Numbered from the whole stretch's first letter, positions 3,703 through 63,934 are shown. The stretch: DNA of 63,934 nucleotides, filler included, from Acidimicrobiia bacterium (GCA_046759765.1; 6 parts of 6 records of this genome joined end to end with filler, not necessarily neighbours in it); one strand, 5' to 3'. The notes: generated by a model not told the origin, from the letters alone. Numbers and translations: made by a program.

Positions 3703-5157
3703 TCAGCGGATGAGTCTGAAGACGACCTGGTTGGGATCTCCGGGGTAGGGCCAGCGGGCATTCTCGGGCATCATGCCCGCCTCGAGGATGAAGGCGGTTA
3801 CGGCCTCGAGACCTCTTATCCCGCTGCCCGGGGTCCCGCACGTCGAGACCGGGTCGGGTCCGCAAGGGCCGCTATCAGCTATTCCTGGCGTATGAACGAT
3901 TTCGCAGCTGAGGGCCGAACAGCCATAGAAAGTCGAGTCCAGATAGACGGGCCGGAAGGTCTCGATTCGGTAGAGGCTTCCCGGTGGCCCGAAGTCGTCT
4001 TCCCACATCTCCGGTACGAATCCGAAGCGAAATGCATCCGAAATGTCGGGTACGAAGATCACTTGATCGGCCAGGGGATCCCAATTCTCGAGGCAGTTCT
4101 GCATCGAGAGCACGTCGGAAACCGAGCCGCACGGGTGTCCGAGCGGGAACGGGCGTAAGTAGTCCCATAGAGGAGTGTCGTCAATGCTGGTGGTGGGATT
4201 GCCGCCCTGCGGCCCGCGAACGGTTATGCGGTTTCCTCCCTGGGAGAGTCTCCCTGGGTAGGGCCCGGTCAACGAATGAACAGAGCCTCCATGAGTCAGC
4301 CCGGCATCGAGGTTGCTGCCTACTCCCGGCTGTCCGAGCGCCATGTTGGGCTCTGCGTACCAGATAGGACACATTGTCTGCTCCTCGACGCCGGGACCTA
4401 GACCGGTCGGGTGCTGACGCATCGGATGGTCGACACCACGGGCTATGTTCGAAAGCAGGCGTCCATTCGTGTCGCCGGTGCATTCGATGGTCGTGCCCAT
4501 TTTGTAGTTCCCATAGAGAAACACGTCCATCGAGCCGAAGTTGCCAGTGGTGGGAAGATCGTCGCAGTCGCCCCAGCTCGGGTTACCCGAGGTCTTCAGG
4601 CAGTTGTATGTCGTGTTGCCTGCGTTGCCGGGCAGGAGGAAGGGCAGAATGCTTCCGCTGCGAAGGTCGCCTTCTGCCTCCGCCTGGGCACTCGTCTGCA
4701 GTGCAAGAACCCCGAGGAATCCCCCAAAGGTGGTCTCTACGTCGATCGTGGGGATCCGGACCCACGCCCGCTGAAGGTTCTCGGTAAAAGCGACGCAGTT
4801 GGAAACGGGCGAGATGTTCGTGTAATCCGCCGGAGGAGTGCTGCACTTCGCGGGGTCCGCCCAATCGGCCGCGGCCGGGTCGTCGAGAGAGGCGGTGGCG
4901 ACCGCAATGGCCTCGCTGGCACCGCTGGTCAGAGCAGCGTTGATGCAGGCGCTCGTAGATCCGCAACCCGTGCCCGGGCGGGCGAACTGGACCGCGGCAA
5001 GGGAGGCGACGTCCGCAGCCGATTGGTCCTGTCGACGCTCGTTGAACCCGGCTCCCACGTCGATGACAAGCGCTGCCATGCCCATGATGAGGAGCATCGA
5101 TCCGGCGACGACCAGGGCTGAAGCCCCGTCGTCTCGCCGAAGGAATTGCCGGATCAC
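3703..5157 (-). CDS. TadG-like Flp pilus pseudopilin/tip protein
   Basis: DDG|ASALVVAG...LVIDVG...QSAADVASLAA Tad N-terminus; Cys-rich C-terminal domain. Confidence 0.85.
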   Translation of the reverse strand: MIRQFLRRDDGASALVVAGSMLLIMGMAALVIDVGAGFNERRQDQSAADVASLAAVQFARPGTGCGSTSACINAALTSGASEAIAVATASLDDPAAADWADPAKCSTPPADYTNISPVSNCVAFTENLQRAWVRIPTIDVETTFGGFLGVLALQTSAQAEAEGDLRSGSILPFLLPGNAGNTTYNCLKTSGNPSWGDCDDLPTTGNFGSMDVFLYGNYKMGTTIECTGDTNGRLLSNIARGVDHPMRQHPTGLGPGVEEQTMCPIWYAEPNMALGQPGVGSNLDAGLTHGGSVHSLTGPYPGRLSQGGNRITVRGPQGGNPTTSIDDTPLWDYLRPFPLGHPCGSVSDVLSMQNCLENWDPLADQVIFVPDISDAFRFGFVPEMWEDDFGPPGSLYRIETFRPVYLDSTFYGCSALSCEIVHTPGIADSGPCGPDPVSTCGTPGSGIRGLEAVTAFILEAGMMPENARWPYPGDPNQVVFRLIR

Positions 5158-5612
5158 GAACAGGCAGCCGGCAGCCCGGTATCGGCCCAGGTCGCAGTCT
5201 GCTCGAGCCTTACCTCGACGCTCGACGACAGCGTTAGGGGGGACGGTATCGCCCAGTCGAGCAGGCCCGTTATCGTGGATCCAGGTGCGGCGATCGTCGC
5301 AACGGCCGGATCCCCGATGTCGCCCGCACCCGTTATGCCGACCGTGACTCCCGAGACTGTGTCCATCCGGCCGCAGATCTCGGCCACGATGTCCACCGTC
5401 TGGGCGCTGCCGCTGTTGCCGTTGGGGTTGTAGTTGACGGCGACGAGGCGGGCTCCCTCGCGCGCACCGTGCCGCACATTGAGATTCTGAGAGAACAGCC
5501 AGCCGAACTCCACCATCCCCACCAGGATCAAGACGAGGAAGGGAATCACCAACGCGAACTCGACGATGGCCGCTCCTCGATCCGATCGTTCGAGTCGGAA
5601 GAATCTCGGCAT
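5154..5612 (-). CDS. TadE-like pseudopilin
   Basis: RG|AAIVEFA prepilin motif, GMVEFG, AREGAR. Confidence 0.9.
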   Translation of the reverse strand: MPRFFRLERSDRGAAIVEFALVIPFLVLILVGMVEFGWLFSQNLNVRHGAREGARLVAVNYNPNGNSGSAQTVDIVAEICGRMDTVSGVTVGITGAGDIGDPAVATIAAPGSTITGLLDWAIPSPLTLSSSVEVRLEQTATWADTGLPAACS

Positions 5613-5728
5613 GTCACTCCTGCGCTCGGTGGAGCACCGAGGCCCCCGGCCCCGGCCACCCCGCCTCTCAGCCCAGGATGTGTGCGCTAGCTAGCGCATA
5701 GAGTGGTTATCGTCCCACTCTGAGTGAA

Positions 5729-5756
5729 ACTGTACCAGGCGCCCTCGCTATGGCAA
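5729..5756 (-). promoter_or_regulatory. Putative sigma-A promoter for the last Tad cassette
   Basis: Minus strand TTGCCA-N16-TACAGT with TG extended -10. Confidence 0.5.
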
Positions 5757-5759
5757 TGC

Positions 5760-7106
5760 CTACTCGTCGAGCGTGACGATGTAACGACTGGGCTGGCCTT
5801 GGCCGGGCTCCCATCCGTTCACGCAGCTCGAGTTCGGGCCGTACCAGATGACGAAGGAATCGGTGATCTTGAGCACGTCCCCATTGTTGAGATCGGTGTC
5901 GTAGAGCGGCCGGTCCATAAAGATGTCGTAGAAGCCGATGACTTTCACATCCTTGTTACCGCTAGGAGATAGCGGTGGCGGCTGGAGGGTTCCATTCCAC
6001 AGCAGGTCGTCAGTTACCACTGGTATCTCCGCCAGGCGAGGCGAGTCGCATTTGTACACCGGTCCGTCGTAGTAGATGTGCCGTTCGTTGGGATCAGTAA
6101 CGGTCATGAAGTCGCCATGCACTTGCGGCACCCAGGGCGACTTCCACGTCCCCAGGGCCGGATCGTCGATCATTCCGTCCGCGACCGCCTGTTGGATGTT
6201 GGCCAGTCCGTAGATGGTCGTCGCGTTGCTCGGGTCCAGTGGATAGGAAAGCGGGGGGCTGCTGGTGTCGTTGAGGCTGTAGTGCCAGTAGTCACCGTCT
6301 ACCTCTCGACTCTGGGGCGTGAAGAACTTCCGTCCCCAGTTGAGGGAGGCGGGTCCGAGATTTTCGAGCCGTCCGTCAACGGCAGCCGAGTTGCTGCCGC
6401 GCACGAGACCGTCCGAGAGATGCCCGGCGGAGACCCCGGTGTCGGTCTCGAAGACCCAGCAGGTGGGATCACCGGCCTGACAGGTCGGCACTCCGCTGGC
6501 ATCGAGGAACGCGTAGTCGGCGGAGAGGTCGGGCTGTGTGCCCAGTGAGATGTTGCGGATGATCCAGTTGCTGGTTCCGTTGCTGTCGTCCCGTGGAACA
6601 CGGAGCGGCTGGCAATTGCCGGAATTGCAAGGGTTGCCGACCTGAAGCGTTCCGTCGAAGAAGCCGCCTCCCGGGGCACCGAAAGGCAGGTCTCCGCCAC
6701 CGACCTGGAAGTAGCAGCTGGCGACGGCGCGGTCAGCGATATCGATCTGGCTAACCCCGATCACGGGCGACACCTGACCGTCGATCGAAGTAGTGATGAT
6801 GGCCTCGACCGAGGCGGGCGCATAGTTGGGGTTGAGGATGAGCTCGCCCGGGCTGTAGCCGTTGGCGAGAGCGAAGACCTCGCCGGCTGCGATCGGGTCA
6901 TCTCCGTGGCACTTCGCCCAGGCGGCGGCAATAGCGGCATGGTCAGCCCCGTTCTGGACGCTCCGGTGCTCGTCCAAGCCCCGCCCCCCATCGAGGGCCA
7001 GGGCGACGAGGGCGAAGACAAGAAGCAGCACGATGGCAGCGACGACGAGAGCCGCTCCATGCTCCTGGCTGAGACGGTTCTTCAAGGACGAAGCTCTTTC
7101 GATCAC
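5760..7106 (-). CDS. TadG-like Flp pilus pseudopilin/tip protein
   Basis: HG|AALVVAA...LALDGG...VQNGADHAAIAAA. Confidence 0.85.
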   Translation of the reverse strand: MIERASSLKNRLSQEHGAALVVAAIVLLLVFALVALALDGGRGLDEHRSVQNGADHAAIAAAWAKCHGDDPIAAGEVFALANGYSPGELILNPNYAPASVEAIITTSIDGQVSPVIGVSQIDIADRAVASCYFQVGGGDLPFGAPGGGFFDGTLQVGNPCNSGNCQPLRVPRDDSNGTSNWIIRNISLGTQPDLSADYAFLDASGVPTCQAGDPTCWVFETDTGVSAGHLSDGLVRGSNSAAVDGRLENLGPASLNWGRKFFTPQSREVDGDYWHYSLNDTSSPPLSYPLDPSNATTIYGLANIQQAVADGMIDDPALGTWKSPWVPQVHGDFMTVTDPNERHIYYDGPVYKCDSPRLAEIPVVTDDLLWNGTLQPPPLSPSGNKDVKVIGFYDIFMDRPLYDTDLNNGDVLKITDSFVIWYGPNSSCVNGWEPGQGQPSRYIVTLDE

Positions 7107-7114
7107 CAGTTACC

Positions 7115-7516
7115 TCATGGATAGGGACTGCACGTGTTTTCGGAGACGATCTGACCCGTGAAGGTTCGCGAAAGGGTGAGGTTCCCGCCCAGCATCGGCC
7201 CCAGGATCGGTGTGATGTAGTCGTGGTCGTAGGTGACGGTCACCGCCACCTGGTCGGGGACCGAGCAGTCGATGCCGATGTTGGCGGCCGTAAGCGTCGG
7301 GTTGTCGATGCTCGAGGTGATGCGCTGAATCGTCAGCAGCGGATCGAAAGGCTCGAAGGAGGCGTAAATGGCGCCCTCTTGCGCGGCCTCCTTCAGGGCC
7401 AGGTCCGTATAAAGAGCCCGGCCGAGGTCGACGATGCCGAGAACGAGCAGGAGGAAGAGGGGTGTCACCAGGGCCATCTCCACCGCGGAGGCGCCTCGCT
7501 CGGATTCGAATCTCAT
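7115..7516 (-). CDS. TadE-like pseudopilin
   Basis: RG|ASAVEMA, GIVDLGR, AAQEGA. Confidence 0.9.
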   Translation of the reverse strand: MRFESERGASAVEMALVTPLFLLLVLGIVDLGRALYTDLALKEAAQEGAIYASFEPFDPLLTIQRITSSIDNPTLTAANIGIDCSVPDQVAVTVTYDHDYITPILGPMLGGNLTLSRTFTGQIVSENTCSPYP

Positions 7517-7520
7517 TGCG

Positions 7521-8018
7521 CTACCCCTTGAAGATCGTGCGACGGTCGGTCGAGGTGAGGGTCACCGGGCCGAGGAGGTCCCCAATCAGCGGGATCCCCG
7601 TCTGGAAGTCGGCCGTCACCGTCACGATGATCCGATCACCCGAGTCGAAGGTGTCGGCCGAAGGCGGCGTTCCTGCTGGGCAGGTGGCTAACAGCGGCGT
7701 GCCCGGGCCGTTGTCATAACTGATGTCGATCGCTGAATCCAACAGCGTGAGCATCACGGCGGGACTGCGGGCCGCAGCCCGGATCTCGGCACAGTCGGTG
7801 TAGCGGGGGATCCCATTGACGCTCATGCCTACGGCCGATCCGTAGCGGGCGGCGTCTCGGCTGGCGGTCTCGACCTCAGTGGCGATGGCTATGAAGCGGC
7901 CAAACTCTGCGATGCCGAAGATCATCAGCAACAGAAGCGGCATGATCAATGCGAACTCGACCAGGGAGGCACCCCGGTCGTTATCCCGCTGAAGTAAATA
8001 CCGCCTTGTCGCCCCCAA
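7521..8018 (-). CDS. TadE-like pseudopilin
   Basis: RG|ASLVEFA, GIAEFGR, ASRDAARY. Confidence 0.9.
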   Translation of the reverse strand: MGATRRYLLQRDNDRGASLVEFALIMPLLLLMIFGIAEFGRFIAIATEVETASRDAARYGSAVGMSVNGIPRYTDCAEIRAAARSPAVMLTLLDSAIDISYDNGPGTPLLATCPAGTPPSADTFDSGDRIIVTVTADFQTGIPLIGDLLGPVTLTSTDRRTIFKG

Positions 8019-10971: not shown

Positions 10972-11478
10972 TCAACCGAAGACGAGGTGGATGGGGTTAC
11001 CGACGATGGTCGCCGCCCACGTCGTGCGGTCGTTTACCGAGCCGCCGTAGTTGTAGCGGATCATCCACCAGCATCCGTTGACCGGGTCGCAGGTGTAGGA
11101 GGGGGGAATGGGCACGGTTATCTCCAGCCAATCGCCATTGAATTTGCATCCGGGTGGGCTGCTGATCTGGCCGCAGTTGGTGGTGGTCCGGGTGGCGTCG
11201 ATGACGCATGGACTCGGGTTTCCCGTCTCCTCGACCGAGCCGTCCTTCCAGCTGATGACCCGATAGGAGCAGGACGGCCAGGGATTGCCGTCCGGACCAA
11301 GCAGCGTCATGGCGTTGGGGATGTTGGCCTCTGCGTCACCGGGGTCGAAGAGCTCCAGGAGCATGTCCTTGCCGGCGTGGACTTCCTTCACCTCGGCGAG
11401 GAAGAACTCCGCCGTTCCACCCGACACGTTGACCCAGATCGACATGTCTCCAATGGCGAAGACCCGCGGCTGGGGCCC
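10972..11478 (-). CDS. TadG-like protein, C-terminal part (5' lost at contig end), paralog of 8130-9620
   Basis: FFLAEV...LELFDPGDA...NGDWLEI...YTC...CWW...DRTTWAATIVGNPIHL matches FYLAEV...VELYDPGDA...NGDWLKV...CWW...DTTTWRAYVVGNPVHL. Confidence 0.8.
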   Translation of the reverse strand, partial: GPQPRVFAIGDMSIWVNVSGGTAEFFLAEVKEVHAGKDMLLELFDPGDAEANIPNAMTLLGPDGNPWPSCSYRVISWKDGSVEETGNPSPCVIDATRTTTNCGQISSPPGCKFNGDWLEITVPIPPSYTCDPVNGCWWMIRYNYGGSVNDRTTWAATIVGNPIHLVFG

Positions 11479-12991: not shown

Positions 12992-13777
12992 TCAAACCTC
13001 TCTCCGCGACACAGCTATGCGAGCCGCCGCTTGCCCTTCGGTGCATGTCTCGAGCCGGGCGCAACCTGTGCACCACGGACCTCCCGTCCGGGGCAGGGCT
13101 CGGCGGTCCTGCCACGACGAGCGGAGGTCGGTCACCATGAGTGCGACCGCCTTAGCTGTCGACTGGACGCTGGCCGAAGTCGGGACAGAGCGGGACCGCT
13201 CCCCCGTTCGCACCGAGACAGCCTCCACGATCTGCGGAAGCTCGGAGTGCACGAGGACCCAGAGCAGGCTGTAGAAGCCCAGCTGCGCCTCCGCCTCTCC
13301 GAGGCCGCCCGTCTTCCAATCGACCAGCCGCACGTCCTCTTCGTCCTCGAAGACCGCGTCGATGGTGCCGACGAGCTCGACGCCCTCCTGAGGCTCGGCT
13401 TCCAGCTCGAGCTCCGAGCCGGTGAATCCGTCGGTCGGGAGCCTCACGAACCGTTCGTATAGTGCCCTGACCTCTTCGAATACCCGGTCCAGGTCGGACG
13501 TCTTTAGGCCCAGCGAAGCCATCTTGTGGTTCAGGTTCGAGCTGCCGATTTCCTGCCGGCATGCTTGATCGAACTCGTCGGGCGGGATCGGTCCGGTCGC
13601 CAGATGTCGTGAGAAGAGCCGGTGGGCCAAACCGCCTCGGAAGGCACTGATGGTATCCGGCCCGTATTCCCCCTGGAGCCTGGAGTCGGCGAGCTCCGGG
13701 CACTGCCTGTACGCAACGAACGTTGAAGCAGAGACACGAACGGGCTCGCCGTCAGGCACCGAAGGAAACTCGAGCAT
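12992..13777 (-). CDS. RecB/Cas4-like PD-(D/E)xK nuclease with Fe-S-type cysteines
   Basis: SAS..YRQCP, G.LAH, ELEL, GTIDAV, LVDWKTG, QLGFY, WCTGCARLETC. Confidence 0.85.
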   Translation of the reverse strand: MLEFPSVPDGEPVRVSASTFVAYRQCPELADSRLQGEYGPDTISAFRGGLAHRLFSRHLATGPIPPDEFDQACRQEIGSSNLNHKMASLGLKTSDLDRVFEEVRALYERFVRLPTDGFTGSELELEAEPQEGVELVGTIDAVFEDEEDVRLVDWKTGGLGEAEAQLGFYSLLWVLVHSELPQIVEAVSVRTGERSRSVPTSASVQSTAKAVALMVTDLRSSWQDRRALPRTGGPWCTGCARLETCTEGQAAARIAVSRREV

Positions 13778-13859
13778 GGGCCGATCGTATCGACGTGACG
13801 GTTCGTTGAGGGACAGCATCGGTAAAATGCCGGCCGCGACAGGGACTTCCATAGCCAAA

Positions 13860-15785
13860 ATGCCCATGCTTTCACGGATCGCTTTGGTAGTGATCGGCGC
13901 GCTTGCCGGTCTGGCGGCGATCGTCCTCTCTGCCTTCTTTATCTATCGATGGAGCCACTCGGGTGAGGTGCTCGGCGTTGTCGTAGTTGGCAGTGCTCAG
14001 GTAGGGGGATTGAGTGAGATCGAGGCCACCGCGGAGGTCCTTGCCGTCGAGGACGAGCTGGTCTCGACACCGTCGACAGTCCGAGTCAACGGCTCCGACT
14101 TCGAGCTACTGCCCCACACAGTGGCCTTCGAAGTCGATGAGTCCTCGATCGTCTCCTCGGCAATGCTGATCGGCCGGGAGGGTGGACTCGCTTCACAGTT
14201 CACATGGTGGCTCACCTCCTTTGGAGAAACCTTCTCGTTGCCGCTGGTTGGTTCACTCAATGAGGAGGCGCTCCACGTCCTGCTGGATCAGTGGGAGGTC
14301 GACTCTGGCATGGAACTCCCATTCGACGGCGCCATAACACTCGAGGGAGCCACGCCGTTTGTTCAGTATCCGAGGCCTGGCTTGGGCATCGATCGTCCGG
14401 GGGTGCCCCAGCAGATTCTCGGGACACTTCTTCAACATGAGCGCCGACCGGTGGTGCTTCCGACGAACGTCCTCGAGCCTGCGTTAACGCAGCAGGATCT
14501 GGATCAGAGCCTGGCGCATGCGCGGAAGCTCCTCTCTGGCCCCGTAACGCTCACCAGGGATGATCCGGAAGTCAGCGTGACCTTCTCAACCGAGCAGCTT
14601 GCACAATCATTCGTCGCCACCATCATCCACGGACCGAATCCACGCATGCAGCTGGGGTTCGACGTGACGGCTATCGACAGCTACCTGAACGCGATTCGAG
14701 AGGATCTCGAGGCTCCGCCCCGTAACGCCGAGTTCGTCGTTGATGAGGACGATCGAATCAGGATCCTGCCCAGTCGTCCGGGGACCCTGGTGGACAGTGG
14801 CCTCGCGGCGGAGGCGGTTACAGATGCAGCCGGTACGTTCGCTCGGCTGGGTGAATTTCCCTTTGAGGACGGTGCCGAGCCGGAGGTGACTACCGCATCG
14901 CTCGAGCGACTCGGAATCGAGCATCTGGTGTCGGCCTTCACCACCTATCACAGCTGCTGCCAATGTCGCGTCAACAACATCCATCTGATCGCGGACGAAA
15001 TCGACGGAGCTTTGGTCCTTCCGGGTGAAACCTTCTCTGTCAATGAGCACGTCGGACCTCGCACTACGGCCGAGGGATATTGCGAAGCGGGAACGATCAT
15101 CGGCGGAGAGCTAGAGGACACGGTTGGCGGTGGAGTGAGCCAATTCGCCACGACGTTCTACAACGCCGTCTTCTGGGGCGGCTACGAGGACATCGAGCAC
15201 AAGCCCCACAGTCTGTACTTCAGCCGGTACCCGGAAGGTATCGAGGGGACGATCTCTTGGCCAGCCCCGAATCTGATCTTCCGTAACGACACAGACTCCG
15301 GCGTCTTGATCAAGACCGACTACACGGATACTTCGATCACCGTCAAGTTCTTCGGATTCAACGGAGGTCGCATCGTCGTTGGGGAGCAGAAAGGCGGCGA
15401 CACGATACTTCGCGTCGTTGCGCCCGGAAGTGACGCTCGAATCGTCACCGCCGAGCTCTCAGAGCGGTACAACTTCCGCGACTCCAAGACCAAGTACGAG
15501 GCGGATCCCACCCTGGCGCCCGGCGAGGAGGTGGTCGAGACCCGAGGCGGACGGGGGTGGAGCGTCGACGTCGCGCGGACGATTCGTTATCCGGACGGGA
15601 CCGAGGTGCAGAACTTCTGGACCGTCCGCTATGGCCCGCCGTTTCGTGTGATCCTCGTGCATCCATGCATGGTGCCCGAGGGTCACGAGGGTTACACGGG
15701 CGAAGAGTGCCCGGAGGAGACCACCACGGTACCGGAGACCTCGATTCCTCCCACGACCGTGCCGCCGACTACGACCGAAGGATGA
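13860..15785 (+). CDS. VanW family protein with N-terminal TM anchor and PG-binding repeats
   Basis: RVNNIHL...VLPGETFSVN...VGGGVSQFATTFYNA...HKPHSLYFSRYPEG.EGTI...FRND. Confidence 0.9.
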   Translation: MPMLSRIALVVIGALAGLAAIVLSAFFIYRWSHSGEVLGVVVVGSAQVGGLSEIEATAEVLAVEDELVSTPSTVRVNGSDFELLPHTVAFEVDESSIVSSAMLIGREGGLASQFTWWLTSFGETFSLPLVGSLNEEALHVLLDQWEVDSGMELPFDGAITLEGATPFVQYPRPGLGIDRPGVPQQILGTLLQHERRPVVLPTNVLEPALTQQDLDQSLAHARKLLSGPVTLTRDDPEVSVTFSTEQLAQSFVATIIHGPNPRMQLGFDVTAIDSYLNAIREDLEAPPRNAEFVVDEDDRIRILPSRPGTLVDSGLAAEAVTDAAGTFARLGEFPFEDGAEPEVTTASLERLGIEHLVSAFTTYHSCCQCRVNNIHLIADEIDGALVLPGETFSVNEHVGPRTTAEGYCEAGTIIGGELEDTVGGGVSQFATTFYNAVFWGGYEDIEHKPHSLYFSRYPEGIEGTISWPAPNLIFRNDTDSGVLIKTDYTDTSITVKFFGFNGGRIVVGEQKGGDTILRVVAPGSDARIVTAELSERYNFRDSKTKYEADPTLAPGEEVVETRGGRGWSVDVARTIRYPDGTEVQNFWTVRYGPPFRVILVHPCMVPEGHEGYTGEECPEETTTVPETSIPPTTVPPTTTEG

Positions 15786-15786
15786 T

Positions 15787-16095
15787 TTACTCGTCGCGGT
15801 TTTCGTCGTAGTGGACGAAGAGGTTACGAATGATGTTCGAGCTGGTATCTACCACGTCCTCGGTCCACCCTTCGGTGCGCTCGACTGAAATGGTGTTGGA
15901 GAGCACGTAGACACCGGAGATGTCAGGATCGGCGGCCCATAGTTGAGCCGCGAGCCGGGCCGGCCAGGTCTCGGATTGTTCCGCGTCGGCGGCGGATTCG
16001 AAACTCTCCCCATCCTGTCCGCCCAGCGTCCGATCGGTGGCGAAAATCGTGACTTCGCCGAGTCGAGTGGCATGAACCTCGATCAGCTGACCCAC
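15787..16095 (-). CDS. Small protein resembling the NifU/Nfu N-terminal scaffold domain
   Basis: SD AAGGAGG then GTG; F.TDRTL...LAAQLW...ISGVYVLSNTISV...W. Confidence 0.6.
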   Translation of the reverse strand: MGQLIEVHATRLGEVTIFATDRTLGGQDGESFESAADAEQSETWPARLAAQLWAADPDISGVYVLSNTISVERTEGWTEDVVDTSSNIIRNLFVHYDENRDE

Positions 16096-56531: not shown

Positions 56532-56602
56532 CAGGCGGCCGCAAGTACCGCAACCATCAACAACAGGGGGAACCGAGGCCCGGTCCGGCCGGAAACCGTC
56601 AT
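56532..56602 (-). CDS. N-terminus of a probable lipoprotein, cut by the gap
   Basis: MTVSGRTGPRFPLLLMVAVLAAA-TG(n); the last codon is incomplete and would give a LAAAC lipobox. Confidence 0.55.
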
Positions 56603-56880
56603 CCTTCAACTATTACACCGCAGGCCCTCGTAGGGTTCCAGGTCCTAACACCCTGATCAGCGGGGGAGCTGATCTAAGCGCGGCGTCGCACCACACACGA
56701 AGGCTGGATTACAGCCGAGATGCCGTTGGTGAGCGCTCCTCGGGGCGCACTGGGGGCGCGGGAGGACCAAAACAGGTGCAATTCGCTGCGTGATTGTGCA
56801 AGACGATGAAGGGACGCAAAGCGTTGCCGGGCAAGGGTTTCCGGCCGATCCCCTTGTGCGCCAACGGAAGGCCGATTCTG

Positions 56881-56949
56881 ACTGCATCAGTCTTGAAAAC
56901 TGCTGGGCTCCATTCGGGGTCTCGTGGGTTCGAATCCCACTCCCTCCGC
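56881..56949 (+). repeat. tRNA-Ser(TGA) 3' fragment, direct repeat copy 1 (att-like)
   Basis: CAGT-CT-TGA-AA-ACTG anticodon arm, long variable arm, GTGGGTTCGAATCCCAC, TCCCTCCG; no GGAGGGA 5' acceptor strand upstream. Confidence 0.85.
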
Positions 56950-57161
56950 TCAAAGGCCTGGTGTAAAGCTTTCCGGTGGTAGTGGCTGTAACGCGACCAC
57001 CTGGTCGGAGACGTTGCCTCCAAACGTGGAGGAGTTATGTGCTCTTCATGTCCACGGCCCCGCCCGAATCCTCTGCCGCATATGCGCTACCTCGAGGGTC
57101 GGTAAGTCACTCGCAAGCACCGTTTGCCACACTTAGACCTGTTTTCAGCCTGGGAGTTGGC

Positions 57162-59963
57162 GTGAGTACCGCTGAGGCCGGTACTGGGGCTTCAGATTCT
57201 CCGGTAGCTGTCGTCTACGACGGGTTCCTTTCCTACTCCCACGCTGCTGACGACCTGCTTGCACCGAGGCTGCAGGCTGGGTTGCAGCGGTTCGCTAAAC
57301 CGTGGTGGAAACGACGCGCATTACGGGTTTTCCGAGACGATGCCTCCCTGAGTGCGAATCCTCATCTGTGGTCGTCGATCACCGAGGCCTTGGATCAGTC
57401 GGGCTGGTTTGTGCTGTTGCTCTCACCTGATGCGGCAGAGTCGCCGTGGGTGAACCGAGAAGTGGAGTACTGGCTACAACATAAGGAGGCGTCTCGGGTT
57501 CTGCCGGTGGTCACCGACGGGGAGTTCGGCTGGGCCGGCGGAGATGTCAGCCCTGAGACTGACTCCACTCCGCCGGCTCTCTATGGGGCGTTTGGGGAGG
57601 AGCCGAGGTGGGTGGACCTGCGTTGGGCCAGGACAGACACCGATCTGGATTTGAGCAATGCCGAGTTCCGTAACGCCGTCGCGGATATCGCTTCTGCCCT
57701 ACGGGGGATGCCCAAAGACGAGTTGGCTTCTGAGGAGGTCAAACAGCACCGCCGCACCATCCGCACCGCCTGGGCCGCCGGTGTGGCGCTGCTGCTGCTT
57801 GTAGTGGTTGCCACAGCGGCAGCCGTGTTCGCTATCAGCCAGCGAAACGAAGCCCAAGAAAACGAGCGGCTGGCAAGGACCCGCGAGCTGGCTTCAGCTG
57901 CCGACTTCAACATCAGTCTGGACCCGGAGCGCAGCGTCCTGCTAGCTCTGGCCGCTGTCGATGCGAGCCGGTCTGTGGACGGCCTGGTGCTTCGGGAGGC
58001 CGAGGAAGCTCTTCATCGTTCGGTGCAAGCTTCGCGGGTGGTGTACAGCCTCCCTGCTTCTGGGGCGGTGGCCTTCAGCCCCGACGGGAGGTTGCTTGTG
58101 ACCCCGGGAATCTCATCATCCAGTTCGGAGGCTTCCGGCCAGGCCGAAACGGTCACGGTGATCGCTGGGTCGTCCACGGTGATCGTCTGGGATGTGACAT
58201 CCGGTCAAGTACTGGGCACTTTGGAAGGGCATGAGGGTTTGGTGACCAATCTCACATTCAGTCCCGACGGCTCTCACGTAGCGACTTCTAGCTCGGACCG
58301 CACAGCGAGGGTGTGGAACGTCTCTACCGGCGAAGAGCTGATGAGGTTCGTTGGTCATGAGGACGGACTGATCAGTGTCGCCTTCAGCCCGGACGGTCGT
58401 CTGCTGGCTACAACGGGCATGGATGAAGCCGCAAGGATCTGGGACGTCCAATCGGGCGATGAGCTGGCTGCCTTAGAGAATCCGTTTGCGTCGGGCCTTG
58501 CCTTCAGTCCCGACGGGACTGTTCTGGCTGTAGCAGGCGGCGACCTCAAACTGTGGGACGTGGCCAGTGCTGAGTTGGTTCGAACGCTGTCGGGTCACCA
58601 GTTCGAGCTGAGCGACGTCGTCTTCAGCAAGGACGGCAGCATGCTGGTGACGTCCAGTCAGGACGCCACGGCCAAACTCTGGGACCCTGAAACTGGAGAG
58701 GAGTTCTCCACACTGATTGGCCACACCGGCCCTCTGCTCGGTGTCGACATCAACTCGGACGGGACTCTGATAGTCACCAGTGGCAGTGATGCCAGCGTCA
58801 GAGTGTGGGAACGAGGTCCCAGCAGCGTGCGAGAGGTGATGTCGTTGGTCGGACATGAAGGACCGATTCCCAATGTTGCCTTAAGCCCGGACTCGAGCCT
58901 GCTAGCGAGCGGCAGTGAGGACGGGTCCGTGCGGGTATGGGATCTGAGCGTCAACGGCAGCCGCGAACAACTCACGGTGCCCGGTGCGTCCGTCTGGGTT
59001 GGGGCAGTCGCCTTTGCCCCTGACGGGACCTGGATAGTGGCCAGCGCCGACGACGGCGTTGCTGTTGGCTGGAATGTCGATACCGGAGACGAGTTGTTCC
59101 GGCTCGTCGGCCACGAAGGCCAAAGCACAGAAACCGGCGCTGTCTTCGCTGTCGATGTGAGTACTGACGGAACCATCGTTGCGACCGCAAGCAACGACCG
59201 GACAGTCAAACTGTGGGATGCGTCTACCGGCCGGGAGCGGCTGACGTTCTCAAATCATGACGGATGGGTGAACGGCGTAAGCATCAGTGCCGACGGTGCA
59301 ACCGTCGCCTCTGTCGCTGACGACGGCACCGCGAGATTATGGGAAGCAGAAACAGGCAACGAACTGGTCGCGATCGCTGCCCATCCCGGGAACGTCGTCT
59401 TCGGTGTGGAGTTCAGTCCTGGCGGATCCTTGATAGCCACGGTAGGTACCGACAGCCGTGCGGTGATCTGGGACGCCCAAACTGGACTCGCCCAGATCGA
59501 CTGGACTGTCCCTCGCCCGTTCTCGGTCGCTTTCGACCCGCTGGGAGAGCGGGTTGTCACAGCGGGAGACGACGGCTCCGTCACAGTATGGGATGCCACC
59601 AGCGGCGAGGAGATCCTCAGCATCCAAGCCCACTCGGGAGGAGTTCTGCACGCCACCTTCAGCCCCGACGGATCACAGCTCGCGAGCGGAGGCTTCGACG
59701 GAGCAGTACGTCTATGGGATTCAGCAACGGGCCTACAGCTCCTCGAGCTGGGTGGCCACACAAGTCTTGTAGCGCGAGTCGCCTTCAGTCCCAATGGCGA
59801 ACTGCTCGCATCGATCAGCGACGACGGCACAGTGCGGATCTATGTGCTTCCGGTCGAAAGACTCATCGAGCTCGCCAAGAGCCGTCTGACCCGATGGTGG
59901 ACTCCACAAGAGTGCCTCCAATATCTACACACCGACGGGTGCCCACCGCCAAACACGGACTAG
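57162..59963 (+). CDS. TIR domain - TM helix - 14x WD40 repeat protein
   Basis: YDGFLSYS...VFRD...LLSP....SPWVNRE (TIR, catalytic-position Glu); TM AWAAGVALLLLVVVATAAAVFAI; 14 GH/FSPDG/W[DNE] repeats; GGGAG before GTG 57162. Confidence 0.92.
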   Translation: MSTAEAGTGASDSPVAVVYDGFLSYSHAADDLLAPRLQAGLQRFAKPWWKRRALRVFRDDASLSANPHLWSSITEALDQSGWFVLLLSPDAAESPWVNREVEYWLQHKEASRVLPVVTDGEFGWAGGDVSPETDSTPPALYGAFGEEPRWVDLRWARTDTDLDLSNAEFRNAVADIASALRGMPKDELASEEVKQHRRTIRTAWAAGVALLLLVVVATAAAVFAISQRNEAQENERLARTRELASAADFNISLDPERSVLLALAAVDASRSVDGLVLREAEEALHRSVQASRVVYSLPASGAVAFSPDGRLLVTPGISSSSSEASGQAETVTVIAGSSTVIVWDVTSGQVLGTLEGHEGLVTNLTFSPDGSHVATSSSDRTARVWNVSTGEELMRFVGHEDGLISVAFSPDGRLLATTGMDEAARIWDVQSGDELAALENPFASGLAFSPDGTVLAVAGGDLKLWDVASAELVRTLSGHQFELSDVVFSKDGSMLVTSSQDATAKLWDPETGEEFSTLIGHTGPLLGVDINSDGTLIVTSGSDASVRVWERGPSSVREVMSLVGHEGPIPNVALSPDSSLLASGSEDGSVRVWDLSVNGSREQLTVPGASVWVGAVAFAPDGTWIVASADDGVAVGWNVDTGDELFRLVGHEGQSTETGAVFAVDVSTDGTIVATASNDRTVKLWDASTGRERLTFSNHDGWVNGVSISADGATVASVADDGTARLWEAETGNELVAIAAHPGNVVFGVEFSPGGSLIATVGTDSRAVIWDAQTGLAQIDWTVPRPFSVAFDPLGERVVTAGDDGSVTVWDATSGEEILSIQAHSGGVLHATFSPDGSQLASGGFDGAVRLWDSATGLQLLELGGHTSLVARVAFSPNGELLASISDDGTVRIYVLPVERLIELAKSRLTRWWTPQECLQYLHTDGCPPPNTD

Positions 59964-60016
59964 CAGCCCACACTCAAACCTGACCCGCCCATCTGGGCAC
60001 CTACTAGCTCATTCGC

Positions 60017-60085
60017 ACTGCATCAGTCTTTAAAACTGCTCGGCCCCATTTGGGGTCTCGTGGGTTCAAATCCCACTCCCTCCGC
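60017..60085 (+). repeat. tRNA-Ser 3' fragment, direct repeat copy 2 (att-like)
   Basis: 64/69 nt identical to 56881-56949 by manual alignment; anticodon mutated to TTA. Confidence 0.85.
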
Positions 60086-60086
60086 C

Positions 60087-60722
60087 CTACGTGGTGGTCA
60101 CTCGTAGCGTGAAGGGCGACGTAGTACGGCCCGATCGAGCGGATACCTCGATGTAATACGAACCTGGGAATACGAACTCCGCTTGCTCGAACGCGCCCAG
60201 CTCACCGCGAAAGAGCGGGGGTTCGATCAGCACTAGCTCATCCTCAGGACCGGAAACGTCCGAAGACCGCAGGCCCAGGCCGCCCCGTAGTGCTTCCATA
60301 TCAGGGAAGCCCACAAACAGGGCGAGGTCGTCCGTCAGTTCGGTCAGCTCAACCGAGATGCTGGTAACACCTTCGGGGATCTGCACACAGAAGAACCATG
60401 TGCTGTGTTCCGCATCGCGGGTCTCGCTGACCGTCGATCCGATGGCGATCTCCGTTGCCGGCTCTTTGCACTCCTCCACCGGCGGTCCCGCCGGGGCTTC
60501 GCTAGACGTTTCCACCTCGGCAGGAGCCGCAGGCTCAGCCGGTGCCTCCGGCTGGTCCGGCGATTCTCCAGCTGGACTGGGTGCCTCGGTCACAGCCGGC
60601 TCGGCCGGCTCCGGCTCGTCAGATTCTGTCGGCGTACTCGCACCGCCTCCGCATGAAGCCAAAGTCACCACCACAGCCACGAGTAGAGCGCCACGAACAG
60701 TTCTCGTTTGGCGCTCAGACAT
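60087..60722 (-). CDS. Lipoprotein with Pro/Glu-rich linker and PPC-like beta domain
   Basis: Lipobox LASC; EPAEPA linker; DDLALFV...EDE.V...PGSYYIEV. Confidence 0.75.
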   Translation of the reverse strand: MSERQTRTVRGALLVAVVVTLASCGGGASTPTESDEPEPAEPAVTEAPSPAGESPDQPEAPAEPAAPAEVETSSEAPAGPPVEECKEPATEIAIGSTVSETRDAEHSTWFFCVQIPEGVTSISVELTELTDDLALFVGFPDMEALRGGLGLRSSDVSGPEDELVLIEPPLFRGELGAFEQAEFVFPGSYYIEVSARSGRTTSPFTLRVTTT

Positions 60723-60740
60723 CCGAACCCCCTTTAACCT

Positions 60741-61202
60741 CTACAGCCTACGGTCATCGAAGAACTCGCTCAGCAGCGCCGCGCTCTCCTCTTCCATGAC
60801 TCCCGCGATCACCTCGCAATAGTGATTGAGTCGCGCGTCCTGAGGAATGTTGTAGAGGCTCCAAGCAGCACCTGCCTTAGGATCCGCAGCTCCGTAGACG
60901 ATACGGTCTAGCCGAGCCCAGACCGCGGCCCCCGCACACATCGGGCAAGGCTCCAGCGTGACTACGAGCGTCATGCCGTCGAGTCGCCAGCTACGCCGCT
61001 CAGAGGCGGCTCCGGTAATGGCCAGAATTTCCGCGTGGGCAGTGGGATCCTGCAGCTCCTCTTTGCGGTTGTGATCGGAGGTGACGACCGCGCCATCTGC
61101 GTCGACTAGCACAGCTCCGACCGGCACATCCCCGTGCTCAGGCGCCCGACGAGCCTCGTCCAGAGCCAGCTGCATGAAGGGTTCGTATTCGAGGAACTCC
61201 AC
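60741..61202 (-). CDS. tadA: tRNA adenosine(34) deaminase
   Basis: M..AL.EA, VPVGAV, DPTAHAE, VTLEPCPMCAGA, DPKAGA, FF..RR. Confidence 0.92.
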   Translation of the reverse strand: MEFLEYEPFMQLALDEARRAPEHGDVPVGAVLVDADGAVVTSDHNRKEELQDPTAHAEILAITGAASERRSWRLDGMTLVVTLEPCPMCAGAAVWARLDRIVYGAADPKAGAAWSLYNIPQDARLNHYCEVIAGVMEEESAALLSEFFDDRRL

Positions 61203-61274
61203 GCAGCCGTACACTACGGACTCGCGTCCCAACGTCCGCCGGCTACTCACCGGATCAGCCTGGGTCGACGCGTT

Positions 61275-61365
61275 GGAGGGATCGCATAGTCTGGCCTAGT
61301 GCGCACGCCTGGAAAGCGTGTTGGGGGTTACCGCCCCCTCGTGGGTTCAAATCCCACTCCCTCCG
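61275..61365 (+). tRNA. tRNA-Ser(GGA)
   Basis: GGAGGGA/TCCCTCC acceptor stem, CACGC-CT-GGA-AA-GCGTG, long variable arm, GGTTCAAATCC; CCA not encoded. Confidence 0.95.
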
Positions 61366-61368
61366 CGA

Positions 61369-61391
61369 GGAACCGGCCTAAGGCCGGTTCC
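61369..61391 (+). terminator. Perfect inverted repeat after the tRNA
   Basis: GGAACCGGCCT-A-AGGCCGGTTCC. Confidence 0.6.
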
Positions 61392-61421
61392 AGCTCATCC
61401 TGGGCCTCTAGGCTCGGAGTC

Positions 61422-61693
61422 GACTGTGCTAGGTGGGGCGTTAGGGGTGCCCTGAACCCGAAGTCCCCTCAATGCGGGGCCGAACTCCCTGCCGGAGGGC
61501 TGTGCTCGTTCGGGCCAGCGCCGGGCACGTGGTGTTGAAGATTGGGTCCTACGCGACGGGACACCGTGAACCGAGTCAGGTCCGGAAGGAAGCAGCTCTA
61601 AGCGGGCCGTCCCGGGTGCCGTAGGAGTGCCTGATCCGAGCCGGCGACCCGGAACGCGCCGCACGAACAGGCTCGAGGGCAGGGTGCACAGTC
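61422..61693 (+). ncRNA. ffs: Signal recognition particle RNA, large (Alu-domain) type
   Basis: Helix 8 TCAGGTCCGGAAGGAAGCAGC; Alu-like 5' GTGCTAGGTGGGG..GGTGCCCTG.ACCCG; end pairing GACTGTGC/GCACAGTC. Confidence 0.92.
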
Positions 61694-61809
61694 ACCTTCC
61701 TGTGAGTCGCGGTCCCGCCTGGCGGGATCGTTACTGACCGAAAACCGGGTCACAGTTTCCTGTCAATCGGGGCCGCGCTTTTCACGGCTGAGATTGACAA
61801 GAACACGCC

Positions 61810-63060
61810 TTACGCCTCGATCGTGTCGAAGCCCACGTAGGGCTGCAGCGCCTCGGGTATCGCAATCGAGCCGTCGGACTGCTGGTAGTTCTCCATGATC
61901 GCGATGAGCGTCCGACCGATTGCCACCGCAGTGCCGTTGAGCGTGTGCACGAGGCGATTCTTACCCTCATCACGGAAGCGGACCTTGAGCCGACGCGACT
62001 GGTAGTCAGTCGTGTTAGAGCACGAGGTGATCTCCCGATAGCGCCCTTGCGACGGCATCCATGCCTCGATGTCGTACTTCTTGGCCGCGGCCGGACCAAG
62101 ATCCCCAGCCGCCACGTTGACGACGCGATACGGAATGCCGAGTTCTTGCACCAACGCTTCCTCGAGACCCAGCAGCCGCTCGTGCTCAGTAGCCGACTCT
62201 TCCGGGCTGACGAACGAGAACATCTCTACCTTGTCGAATTGGTGCACACGGAAGATACCCCGGGTGTCCTTTCCGTAGGTACCCGCTTCGCGCCGAAAGC
62301 AGGTCGAGAACGCAACGTACCGAACGGGCACAGCATCGAGGATCTCGTCCATATGAAGACCGGCGAGAGGCACCTCGGACGTGCCGACCAGGTAGAGGTC
62401 ATCCCGCTCAATCGCGTACACCTGGTCCCTGTCACCCGGGAAGAAGCCGGTCCCGAAGAGGGCCGGCTCTCGGACCATCACCGGAGGCACGACAGCAGTG
62501 AAGCCCTCCGCGATGAGGCGATCGAGCGCCCATCGAACGAGCGCAAACTCCACGATCACAGCCGCACCTAGGACGTAGCCGAAGCGAGTACCCGACACCT
62601 TCGCCGCTCGTCCAAGGTCGATCATGCCGAGGCGCTCCCCGAGCTCCACATGGTCTAGTAGCTCGAAGCCGTAGTCGGGAATGTCCCCCCACCGGCGGAC
62701 CTCGACCGCATCCTCCTCGGTGGCGCCATCGGCGGCCGTCTCGTCGGGCAGATTTGGAATCGACGCCCACAGCTCGTCGAACTCGGCGGCCGCAGCCTCT
62801 GCCTCGGCCGCCAGGCGCTTCGCCTCTCCACCCAGCGCGCTGGCCTTTTCGATTTCGGACTCTCTCTCATCCCCGTCTAGGTTCGGGATTTCCTGGGAGA
62901 CTCTCTTCTGTTCAGCCCTACGGTCTTCTGACTCGCGCCGCAGGCTGCGTCGTCTCCGGTCCAAGTCCTGAAGTCCGGCGAGGTCTACCGAAAGGCCCCG
63001 GCGGCTCAGGCCTGACTCGAGCCGAGCGAGGTCGTCACGTAGCAGCGCCGGGTCGAGCAT
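61810..63060 (-). CDS. serS: Serine--tRNA ligase
   Basis: MLD, IPN, GTSEV, CFRREAG..GKDTRG.FRVHQFDKVE, EITSCSN.TDYQ.RR, HTLNGT. Confidence 0.98.
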   Translation of the reverse strand: MLDPALLRDDLARLESGLSRRGLSVDLAGLQDLDRRRRSLRRESEDRRAEQKRVSQEIPNLDGDERESEIEKASALGGEAKRLAAEAEAAAAEFDELWASIPNLPDETAADGATEEDAVEVRRWGDIPDYGFELLDHVELGERLGMIDLGRAAKVSGTRFGYVLGAAVIVEFALVRWALDRLIAEGFTAVVPPVMVREPALFGTGFFPGDRDQVYAIERDDLYLVGTSEVPLAGLHMDEILDAVPVRYVAFSTCFRREAGTYGKDTRGIFRVHQFDKVEMFSFVSPEESATEHERLLGLEEALVQELGIPYRVVNVAAGDLGPAAAKKYDIEAWMPSQGRYREITSCSNTTDYQSRRLKVRFRDEGKNRLVHTLNGTAVAIGRTLIAIMENYQQSDGSIAIPEALQPYVGFDTIEA

Positions 63061-63103
63061 GGCAGGCGGATGCTACTGCTGGGCCTGCGCAGTCCTCTTG
63101 CCT

Positions 63104-63934
63104 TCAGGCCTCGACAGCATCGTTGACGAAGAACCGTCTGCGATGGAAATTGTTGTCGAGTTTCGACGAGTCCTCCTCAGCGACTTTGGTGATAGCGACG
63201 GAAAGATCGTATGCCTCACTCGGCGTAACGGGCAAAGCCGCGAACATCGCCGTGTTCTGCCCTCCGGGCGCCAACACCGCCAGCACCTGCTGGTCTTGAA
63301 ACAGCACGTTTCCGCCGTCGGTCGTCAGAGTGAGAGCCACACGAACCGCCTCCTCCGGACGGTTTCCATGGTTGGCGACAACGATTTGAACATCGATCGT
63401 CTCAGTAGCGGGAATCACACTGACGGTGGCGTCGGCCTCGGAGATCTCCTCAGGCGTAATACGCACGGCCGAGATCCCCACGTCGACCACCAACGCGAGG
63501 CTGGGCGAACGACGCGCAGCCTGAGCGAGACTACTTGCAACGATGGGCGGATCACCTTCCACATAGGCAACCGACGGGAGGTCTCCGGCTTCGACGTCGA
63601 TCATGGATCTCAGGGCCGCCGCTAGGTCCAGAAACCCCTCGTAGGTCGAGTCTCCTACACGGAGCTTGGTCAAGGCGAGCCCCAAATCGCGTTCGGCGAG
63701 GGGACTCTGAGGCTGATCTACGGAATCCAGTAGTGCCACCTCGAACTCCCCCAGACCTTCATTCCACGACTCGAGCGCCACGAGGAATACTTGTTGGGCC
63801 GCCTGTGCCTGCGGCGGAGCCTGCGAGATGGCGATCTGTTCCATTGCCTCCTGTGTCCCCTCCATCAGTTGCGCCATCGTCGCCATCAGGCTCTCGCGAT
63901 CAATCCGGTTGAGATCTCTTCGGACAAGCTCCTG
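63104..63934 (-). CDS. Hypothetical protein with C-terminal CARDB/Ig-like domain, 5' end outside window
   Basis: Frame open to the window edge; helical region, then V.I.V.N.GN..E...LAPG beta-sandwich pattern. Confidence 0.7.
   Translation of the reverse strand, partial: QELVRRDLNRIDRESLMATMAQLMEGTQEAMEQIAISQAPPQAQAAQQVFLVALESWNEGLGEFEVALLDSVDQPQSPLAERDLGLALTKLRVGDSTYEGFLDLAAALRSMIDVEAGDLPSVAYVEGDPPIVASSLAQAARRSPSLALVVDVGISAVRITPEEISEADATVSVIPATETIDVQIVVANHGNRPEEAVRVALTLTTDGGNVLFQDQQVLAVLAPGGQNTAMFAALPVTPSEAYDLSVAITKVAEEDSSKLDNNFHRRRFFVNDAVEA

Follow-up and report, generated by a model that had tools for sequence, protein, structure and literature searches.

The segment at 56950–60010 in an Acidimicrobiia bacterium (GCA_046759765.1) is probably a small islet that arose by site-specific integration at a tRNA-Ser(UGA) gene. 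Its 3,061 nt carry one gene, which encodes a TIR-WD40 protein, and they are bounded by two direct copies of a tRNA-Ser 3' part. Judged from its sequence, the islet would be a recombinase-less unit, similar to a cis-mobilizable element (CIME) or to a decayed integrative element. Two tRNA 3' copies in direct orientation around one gene are the usual scar of integration at a tRNA site, and the islet is of an already described kind. The window, meaning the whole stretch of DNA analyzed (63,934 nt), consists of six contigs (11.5, 11.2, 11.1, 11.1, 11.1, and 7.4 kb), and features are not readable across their joins. The contig under study is contained whole (56532–63934, 7403 nt). The original prediction had described it as a candidate integron-like array, in which tRNA-Ser fragments punctuate gene cassettes. 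The two-copy repeat around one TIR-WD40 gene was borne out by the repeat search, blastn, and Pfam. The view of the fragments as displaced tRNA-Ser(UGA) 3' ends of the attachment-site (att) type, bounding an integrase-free single-gene segment, was also supported. The array of repeatedly captured cassettes was not supported. The features that carry these conclusions are the following.

56875–56949, plus strand: repeat copy 1, 75 nt; a 13-nt non-tRNA motif followed by about 62 nt of a tRNA-Ser(UGA) 3' part.
57162–59963, plus strand: TIR-TM-WD40 gene (TM, predicted transmembrane segment), 933 aa in the database gene model; the open reading frame (ORF) is open from 56976.
60011–60085, plus strand: repeat copy 2, 75 nt; the anticodon loop is CTTTAAA, and the final 29 nt equal those of the resident tRNA-Ser(GGA).
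61275–61366, plus strand: intact tRNA-Ser(GGA), called by ARAGORN; Rfam tRNA, 52.3 bits.

The direct-repeat search returned two copies at 56875–56962 and 60011–60098, with a spacing of 3136 nt. The copies resemble each other over 75 nt, up to the tRNA 3' end; of the 13 nt that follow, only 7 match. Within the repeat lies a core with 64 of 69 identical positions (92.75%, blastn). The fragment length had been predicted as 69 nt; the shared repeat is longer, at 75 nt. The copies differ at 5 positions of the 69-nt core and at 7 positions of the whole 75-nt repeat, and one of the differences is the middle anticodon base. A 29-nt block is common to both copies and to the 3' end of tRNA-Ser(GGA). Copy 2 matches this block exactly (100%), as the original prediction had it, and copy 1 contains one mismatch (97%).

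The copies were aligned with five intact tRNA-Ser(TGA) genes and scored position by position against the gene of L004, an Acidimicrobiia locus of the comparison set described below. The 3' 60–62 nt of the copies are 88% identical to this intact tRNA-Ser(tga). For copy 1, the match (88–89% over 60–62 nt) starts in the anticodon stem, at its 5' strand, and reaches the 3' end. Copy 1 agrees with the L004 tRNA at 14 of 27 positions in the 1–27 range, and at 55 of 63 from position 28 onward (Fisher p = 7e-4). The corresponding values for copy 2 are 7/27 and 52/63 (Fisher p = 4.5e-7). This collapse of similarity 5' of position 28 indicates a junction, not uniform pseudogene decay. We read the copies as true tRNA-Ser(UGA) 3' parts that begin sharply at a junction in the anticodon stem, and not as evenly decayed whole genes. 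Both fragments had been predicted to begin in the D-stem. Clear tRNA homology begins at about position 28, in the anticodon stem, and the part assigned to the D-region proved to be a shared motif that is not tRNA-like. This 13-nt motif lies upstream of the homology break and is identical at 11 of 13 positions between the copies; its resemblance to a tRNA is not convincing. Such a shared motif upstream of the tRNA part is as expected of att junctions.

The tRNA portion of copy 1 comprises the anticodon stem-loop with CTTGAAA, the variable arm, the T arm, and the 3' acceptor strand. Its anticodon loop is of the UGA type. Both fragments had been assigned to tRNA-Ser(TGA), which holds for copy 1, but the triplet of copy 2 reads TTA (CTTTAAA, 60030–60036). 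Most simply, TTA is a mutation of TGA. In a whole gene the triplet would be an ochre-reading anticodon; the fragment is without its 5' half. The best Rfam match of both copies was tRNA-Sec, with 31.8 bits (E = 0.0027, 56866–56947) for copy 1 and 22.3 bits (E = 0.78) for copy 2, relative to a gathering score of 47. We rejected the copies as complete, unusual tRNAs because ARAGORN made no call, the Rfam scores were below gathering, and no acceptor helix folded.

No further tRNA-Ser fragment was detected by blastn in the other ~56.4 kb of the window. ARAGORN called no intact tRNA-Ser(UGA) on the contig or in the window; the sole intact tRNA called in the whole window was the tRNA-Ser(gga) at 61275–61366. 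This supports the prediction that the parent tRNA-Ser(TGA) gene lies outside this contig, the edge of which is 343 nt from copy 1.

The sole domain-bearing ORF between the copies (56976/57162–59963, plus strand) encodes the TIR-WD40 protein. In Pfam, its N-terminal part matched TIR_2 (E = 6e-11) and ThsB_TIR (E = 5.3e-06), and WD40 was matched in 12 stretches (E = 6e-109). A hydrophobic stretch between TIR and WD40, read by eye from the translation, is a putative membrane anchor. The cargo is probably a membrane-anchored TIR protein, acting as an NAD-cleaving or signaling effector, with a WD40 propeller as the predicted sensor. The gene is plausibly a conflict or defense gene. PADLOC returned weak TIR and repeat matches for it, at the domain level only, and no solved structure was related by sequence to the TIR-TM part at E ≤ 0.01. 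Membership in Thoeris was considered and rejected: ThsB_TIR scored 27.2 bits (cut-off 21.2), yet there was no ThsA-like neighbor.

Of the 8000 candidates scored for the TIR-TM-WD40 family, 989 reached E ≤ 0.001. The best N-terminal identity was merely 69–76%, and therefore no recent transfer is visible. Six pairs of homologues (P0160/P0170, P0213/P0239, P0146/P0186, P0218/P0232, P0126/P0220, and P0201/P0206) had equal longest-contig sizes within the pair, which suggests that TIR-TM-WD40 paralogues often reside on one contig.

As predicted, no integrase was found between the fragments. None of the contig's ORFs that were tested showed a domain of a recombinase, of Xis, or of a transfer protein. 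In the stretch from copy 1 to the TIR gene we found no Xis or other small mobility gene, and the small ORFs had no Pfam or PHROGs match. The original prediction had suggested a tyrosine recombinase acting in trans. On the other five contigs, which sample only a small part of the genome, 56 ORFs were scanned; none encoded an integrase, and no mobile-element genes were seen among them.

We infer a recombinase-mediated origin with the following course. The attP of the element would include a tRNA copy that starts at the anticodon stem and runs to the 3' end, and the crossover with the tRNA gene would occur in or beside the anticodon stem-loop. The break at the anticodon stem fits a crossover in or near the anticodon loop, and this loop is one of the classical crossover sublocations in tRNA genes. 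The copy brought by the element would restore the tRNA, and the native 3' part, now displaced, would come to lie at the element's far end. If the restored tRNA then became the target of another integration, the earlier element would be pushed rightward. The presence of two same-sense fragments without an intact gene between them fits two successive integrations. The resulting order would be an off-contig intact tRNA-Ser(UGA), a newer element (right end at 56532–56874), copy 1, the TIR-TM-WD40 islet, copy 2, and the flank. Copy 2 would represent the original chromosomal 3' end, and the identity of its last 29 nt with the tRNA-Ser(GGA) of the host is as expected for a native end. Copy 1 would have arrived as the end of the older element, the TIR-WD40 islet, and would have been displaced by the newer one.

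Three ORFs tried in the 343 nt left of copy 1 matched no Pfam or PHROGs family, and this sequence had no blastn match in the window or in the 80 loci compared. A blastn comparison of 56532–57170 with the phage and plasmid collections likewise returned nothing. The left contig edge is only 343 nt from copy 1, so that a neighboring integrase-bearing element may adjoin it there. The islet has no recombinase and would therefore be non-autonomous, with no movement of its own. The cognate integrase of a neighboring element could in principle excise it as a 3,136-bp circle, or could co-mobilize it. Because the copies have diverged at the anticodon, the probable crossover region, the islet is probably fixed by now and no longer excisable.

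Alternatively, the locus might derive from a single integration. Copy 1 would then be a decayed, formerly intact tRNA (attL) with native chromosome to its left, and the functional tRNA-Ser(UGA) would reside elsewhere. We consider this rather unlikely. The 5' flank of copy 1 is closer to positions 1–27 of the L004 tRNA than that of copy 2 (14/27 versus 7/27), and Rfam aligned 56866–56947 end to end to a tRNA-type model, the tRNA-Sec match given above. By eye, the flank is tRNA-like at positions 4–14. The similarity was not significant in a local-alignment shuffle test, where 64 of 500 shuffles were as good and genomic control windows scored as high, and we rejected copy 1 as a near full-length tRNA. 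Decay would also have to be confined to the 5' third, with the 3' two-thirds remaining 87–88% identical to a tRNA of another family, which is not the pattern of neutral decay. The 13-nt non-tRNA motif common to both copies points to a common element-derived junction.

The flanks of the islet and the anchor gene used for comparison contain the following features.

56532–56603, minus strand: 5' end of a signal-peptide-like, lipoprotein-like gene stub; 23 codons from the ATG at 56603, then the contig edge (six-frame translation, frame -2).
60087–60722, minus strand: lipoprotein-like ORF, 211 aa; lipoprotein-type N-terminus, 0 Pfam families.
60741–61250, minus strand: tadA, tRNA adenosine deaminase, conserved flank; Pfam MafB19-deam and dCMP_cyt_deam_1.
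61424–61691, plus strand: signal recognition particle (SRP) RNA, large bacterial type; Rfam RF01854, 178.9 bits, full-length match.
61810–63060, minus strand: serS, seryl-tRNA synthetase, the comparison anchor; supported by Pfam and homologues.

A lipoprotein gene had been predicted on each side of the islet, on the minus strand. On the left, the signal-peptide-like frame is real, but it is only a stub that runs off the contig edge. On the right, the stop codon of the ORF starts 1 nt past the last base of copy 2, just as predicted. This ORF forms part of the right flank. The cloverleaf fold of tRNA-Ser(GGA) had a free energy of -44.3 kcal/mol (z = -3.5), and the SRP RNA is placed between this tRNA and serS. 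No promoter- or terminator-like site scored above shuffles in 56532–61500, the two copies included.

We compared the locus with 80 serS-anchored loci with 10-kb flanks, taken from among the matches listed. Ten of these are from Acidimicrobiia (L001–L007, L024, L047, and L071). The serS identity of the closest loci compared was 57–62%; the protein search contains closer serS relatives (74–67%). The serS homologues, the best at 74% identity and many of them named Acidimicrobiia, assign the organism to the uncultured Acidimicrobiia of the phylum Actinomycetota. In accordance with the prediction that relatives would vary here, the cargo was absent from the corresponding neighborhood in all 80 loci. 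By tblastn, neither the TIR-WD40 gene nor the lipoprotein gene at 60087–60722 had a counterpart in any of them. The genes further right recur. The tadA gene adjoins tRNA-Ser(GGA) in five of the ten Acidimicrobiia loci (L001, L002, L003, L005, and L047), a CARDB-domain gene beside serS is found in nine loci, and serS in all. From tadA rightward, the contig reads as ordinary chromosome. An intact tRNA-Ser(TGA) was located ≤10 kb from serS in 25 of the 80 loci, L004 and L047 included, and therefore the parent gene may plausibly lie immediately beyond the left end of the contig.

The tadA(-)/tRNA-Ser(GGA)(+) pair is kept, and serS lies on the 3' side of the tRNA here and on the tadA side in L001 and L003. 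Relative to serS, the position and orientation of the pair differ from those relatives, which points to an inversion or rearrangement in the surroundings of the tRNA-Ser cluster (60741–63934 versus L001 and L003).

A scan of the 80 loci for tRNA-Ser 3' parts outside intact tRNAs returned only the window, L006, and L036. The stray part in L006 was a tRNA cut by the contig end. In L036, a Thermoleophilia metagenome-assembled genome (MAG), serS and an intact tRNA-Ser(TGA) (11259–11347) are followed by 4.1 kb and then by a 55-nt copy of the tRNA 3' end (15425–15479, 98% identity). The 4.1 kb hold an apparently frameshifted zinc-ribbon/cyclase/AAA_16 gene and a methyltransferase gene. No integrase domain was found in the 12 ORFs tested in this locus, 11 of which overlap the 4.1 kb. 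L039 also has a homologue of the cyclase gene after the tRNA, there with no repeat. L036 holds a second integrase-free islet at tRNA-Ser(TGA), and a bounded islet of this integrase-free sort is not unique to the window.

Integrases beside a related target were found in L003, an Acidimicrobiia MAG. Two tyrosine-integrase genes lie back to back at 13033–15795, directly downstream of tRNA-Ser(GCT). Their products are 31% identical to each other, and one carries the domains Arm-DNA-bind_3, Phage_int_M, and Phage_integrase. No matching 3' repeat was seen in the 8 kb available there. Together, the L036 and L003 cases indicate that integration in Actinomycetota makes use of tRNA-Ser genes near serS.

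With these comparisons in hand, we weighed the integron-like system of the original prediction. There, an integrase acting in trans would capture recombinase-less single genes in series, with tRNA-Ser(UGA) as the target site, and the fragments would serve as cassette boundaries. The tight fit around one gene (47 nt from the stop codon to copy 2 and ≤212 nt from copy 1 to the start) and the lack of any recombinase or Xis found inside the segment agree with such capture. The second integrase-free islet, with tRNA-Ser(TGA) and a 3' repeat in L036, agrees as well. The contig, however, holds one bounded unit, with no further fragment in the rest of the window and no evidence of mobility, and no integrase turned up in the small sample of the genome provided by the other five contigs. 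The copies have diverged, the anticodon loop included, and no attC-like element, attI, or common promoter was evident. The L036 islet has two genes, and the homologue of its main gene in L039 stands beside the tRNA without a repeat. Tandem accretion and decay at a tRNA site explain the pattern, so that no integron-like mechanism is needed. We consider serial capture of this kind unlikely.

A broader proposal follows the same lines. Actinomycetota might possess a class of minimal recombinase-free units, each with one or two conflict or signaling genes and a tRNA-Ser(UGA) 3' copy, and a tyrosine recombinase specific to tRNA-Ser, acting in trans, would insert, stack, and exchange them. As a cassette platform, tRNA-Ser(UGA) would then be functionally integron-like, with the TIR-WD40 unit and the L036 cyclase-ATPase unit as its instances. 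We think this improbable. The tight single-gene unit and the L036 islet hint at such a platform. If one-gene units were exchanged in trans at tRNA-Ser(UGA) across genomes, this would constitute a simple gene-shuffling platform outside integrons, which the present data do not show.

It is very improbable that the fragments are not att scars but tRNA pseudogene duplicates from ordinary recombination, functional tRNA-like RNA elements such as signals for processing or termination, or split-tRNA halves: the variable-arm and T-arm hairpins are kept in both copies, a U·G to C–G change in the variable stem preserves pairing, and copy 2 has a fold z of -2.1, but the fold of copy 1 does not surpass those of shuffled sequences (z about -0.9 to -1.2), the copies have no acceptor 5' strand, no ARAGORN call, and Rfam scores below gathering, no terminator-like sites occur at them, and a tRNA end that was displaced recently should in any case still have its hairpins.

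Several observations weigh against an islet formed by integration at tRNA-Ser(UGA). Neither an intact tRNA-Ser(UGA) nor an integrase is seen on the contig, the edge of which is 343 nt from copy 1, and there is only a single repeat-bounded unit. The somewhat tRNA-like 5' flank of copy 1 (14/27) is not required by the tandem model. The relatives compared are distant (57–62% serS identity), so that no empty site or polymorphism is shown. The TIR-TM-WD40 family is large and its listed member P0229 is named Acidimicrobiia; a foreign origin is not demonstrated. Composition is barely atypical, with a GC content of 0.615 in the islet and 0.629 in the right flank. The GC content at third codon positions is 0.675 for the TIR-WD40 gene and 0.66–0.76 for the neighboring genes, and it is mostly 0.70–0.80 for long ORFs elsewhere in the window. 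The fit is snug, with 26–212 nt before the gene and 47 nt between its stop codon and copy 2, which favors an element that was small from the start over a random deletion remnant.

If the tRNA-site origin is true, the islet adds one more case of tRNA genes gathering small islands, in a poorly studied, uncultured class of Actinomycetota. It would also illustrate how a conflict gene of the TIR type, stranded without an integrase, can be kept as a passenger.

Elsewhere in the window, the contig joins (11479–11578, 22799–22898, 34041–34140, 45253–45352, and 56432–56531) are 100-nt N linkers with the stop-codon spacer TTAATTAATTAA at their center. On the first contig, three consecutive TadE-like pilus genes (5154–8018) lie beside housekeeping genes. 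A ribosomal protein operon with secY as its last gene is found on the fifth contig.

Among known systems, integrons resemble the locus only in the idea of gene units parted by recombination sites. Here there is no intI, attI, or attC, the repeats are tRNA-derived, and one bounded unit stands in place of a cassette array. Membership in integrons was rejected, since all defining features tested failed; within the window, no recombinase was found, and there was no promoter-like site in 56532–61500. The classical sign of a tRNA island, an integrase beside the tRNA, was likewise lacking on the 7.4-kb contig and among the 56 ORFs elsewhere.

The tycheposon islands of Prochlorococcus integrate at tRNA genes, and the example in a figure legend is tRNA-Ser(TGA); the same parts of that report describe degenerate remnants and scattered extra partial tRNAs (bioRxiv 10.1101/2020.12.28.424599). 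Their host phylum is unrelated to that of the islet, and no tycheposon-type recombinase or replication module was seen here.

A further parallel is offered by Dehalococcoides, where, in the sections of PMC3146451 drawn on here, a series of islands downstream of ssrA is described, each ending in a repeat of ssrA's 3' end. Some of these islands have no integration module and were proposed as CIMEs (PMC3146451). A conserved short non-ssrA motif just upstream of each repeat marks the insertion point there (PMC3146451), which parallels the 13-nt motif of the present copies. The Dehalococcoides system differs in its 20-bp tmRNA repeats, its serine recombinase, and its many units per genome (PMC3146451), in contrast to the 75-nt repeats, class II tRNA, and single unit found here.

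The islet compares best with CIMEs. In the portions of PMC5704250 consulted, these are elements that keep attL and attR but no longer have their genes for integration and transfer; decay gives rise to them, and accretion stacks them. The CIMEs of ICESt1-related elements in Streptococcus thermophilus have repeats of the target 3' end at both ends and no integration or transfer genes (PMC5704250), like the islet. They stand in tandem with other elements at one site (same portions of PMC5704250), whereas no neighboring integrative and conjugative element or integrative and mobilizable element is visible here. The islet is set apart by its target, tRNA-Ser(UGA), by its Acidimicrobiia host, and by a cargo of a single TIR-WD40 gene. 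Its structure is that of a CIME, with bounding direct repeats of the target 3' end and no integrase, excisionase, or transfer gene inside, as known here from sequence alone.

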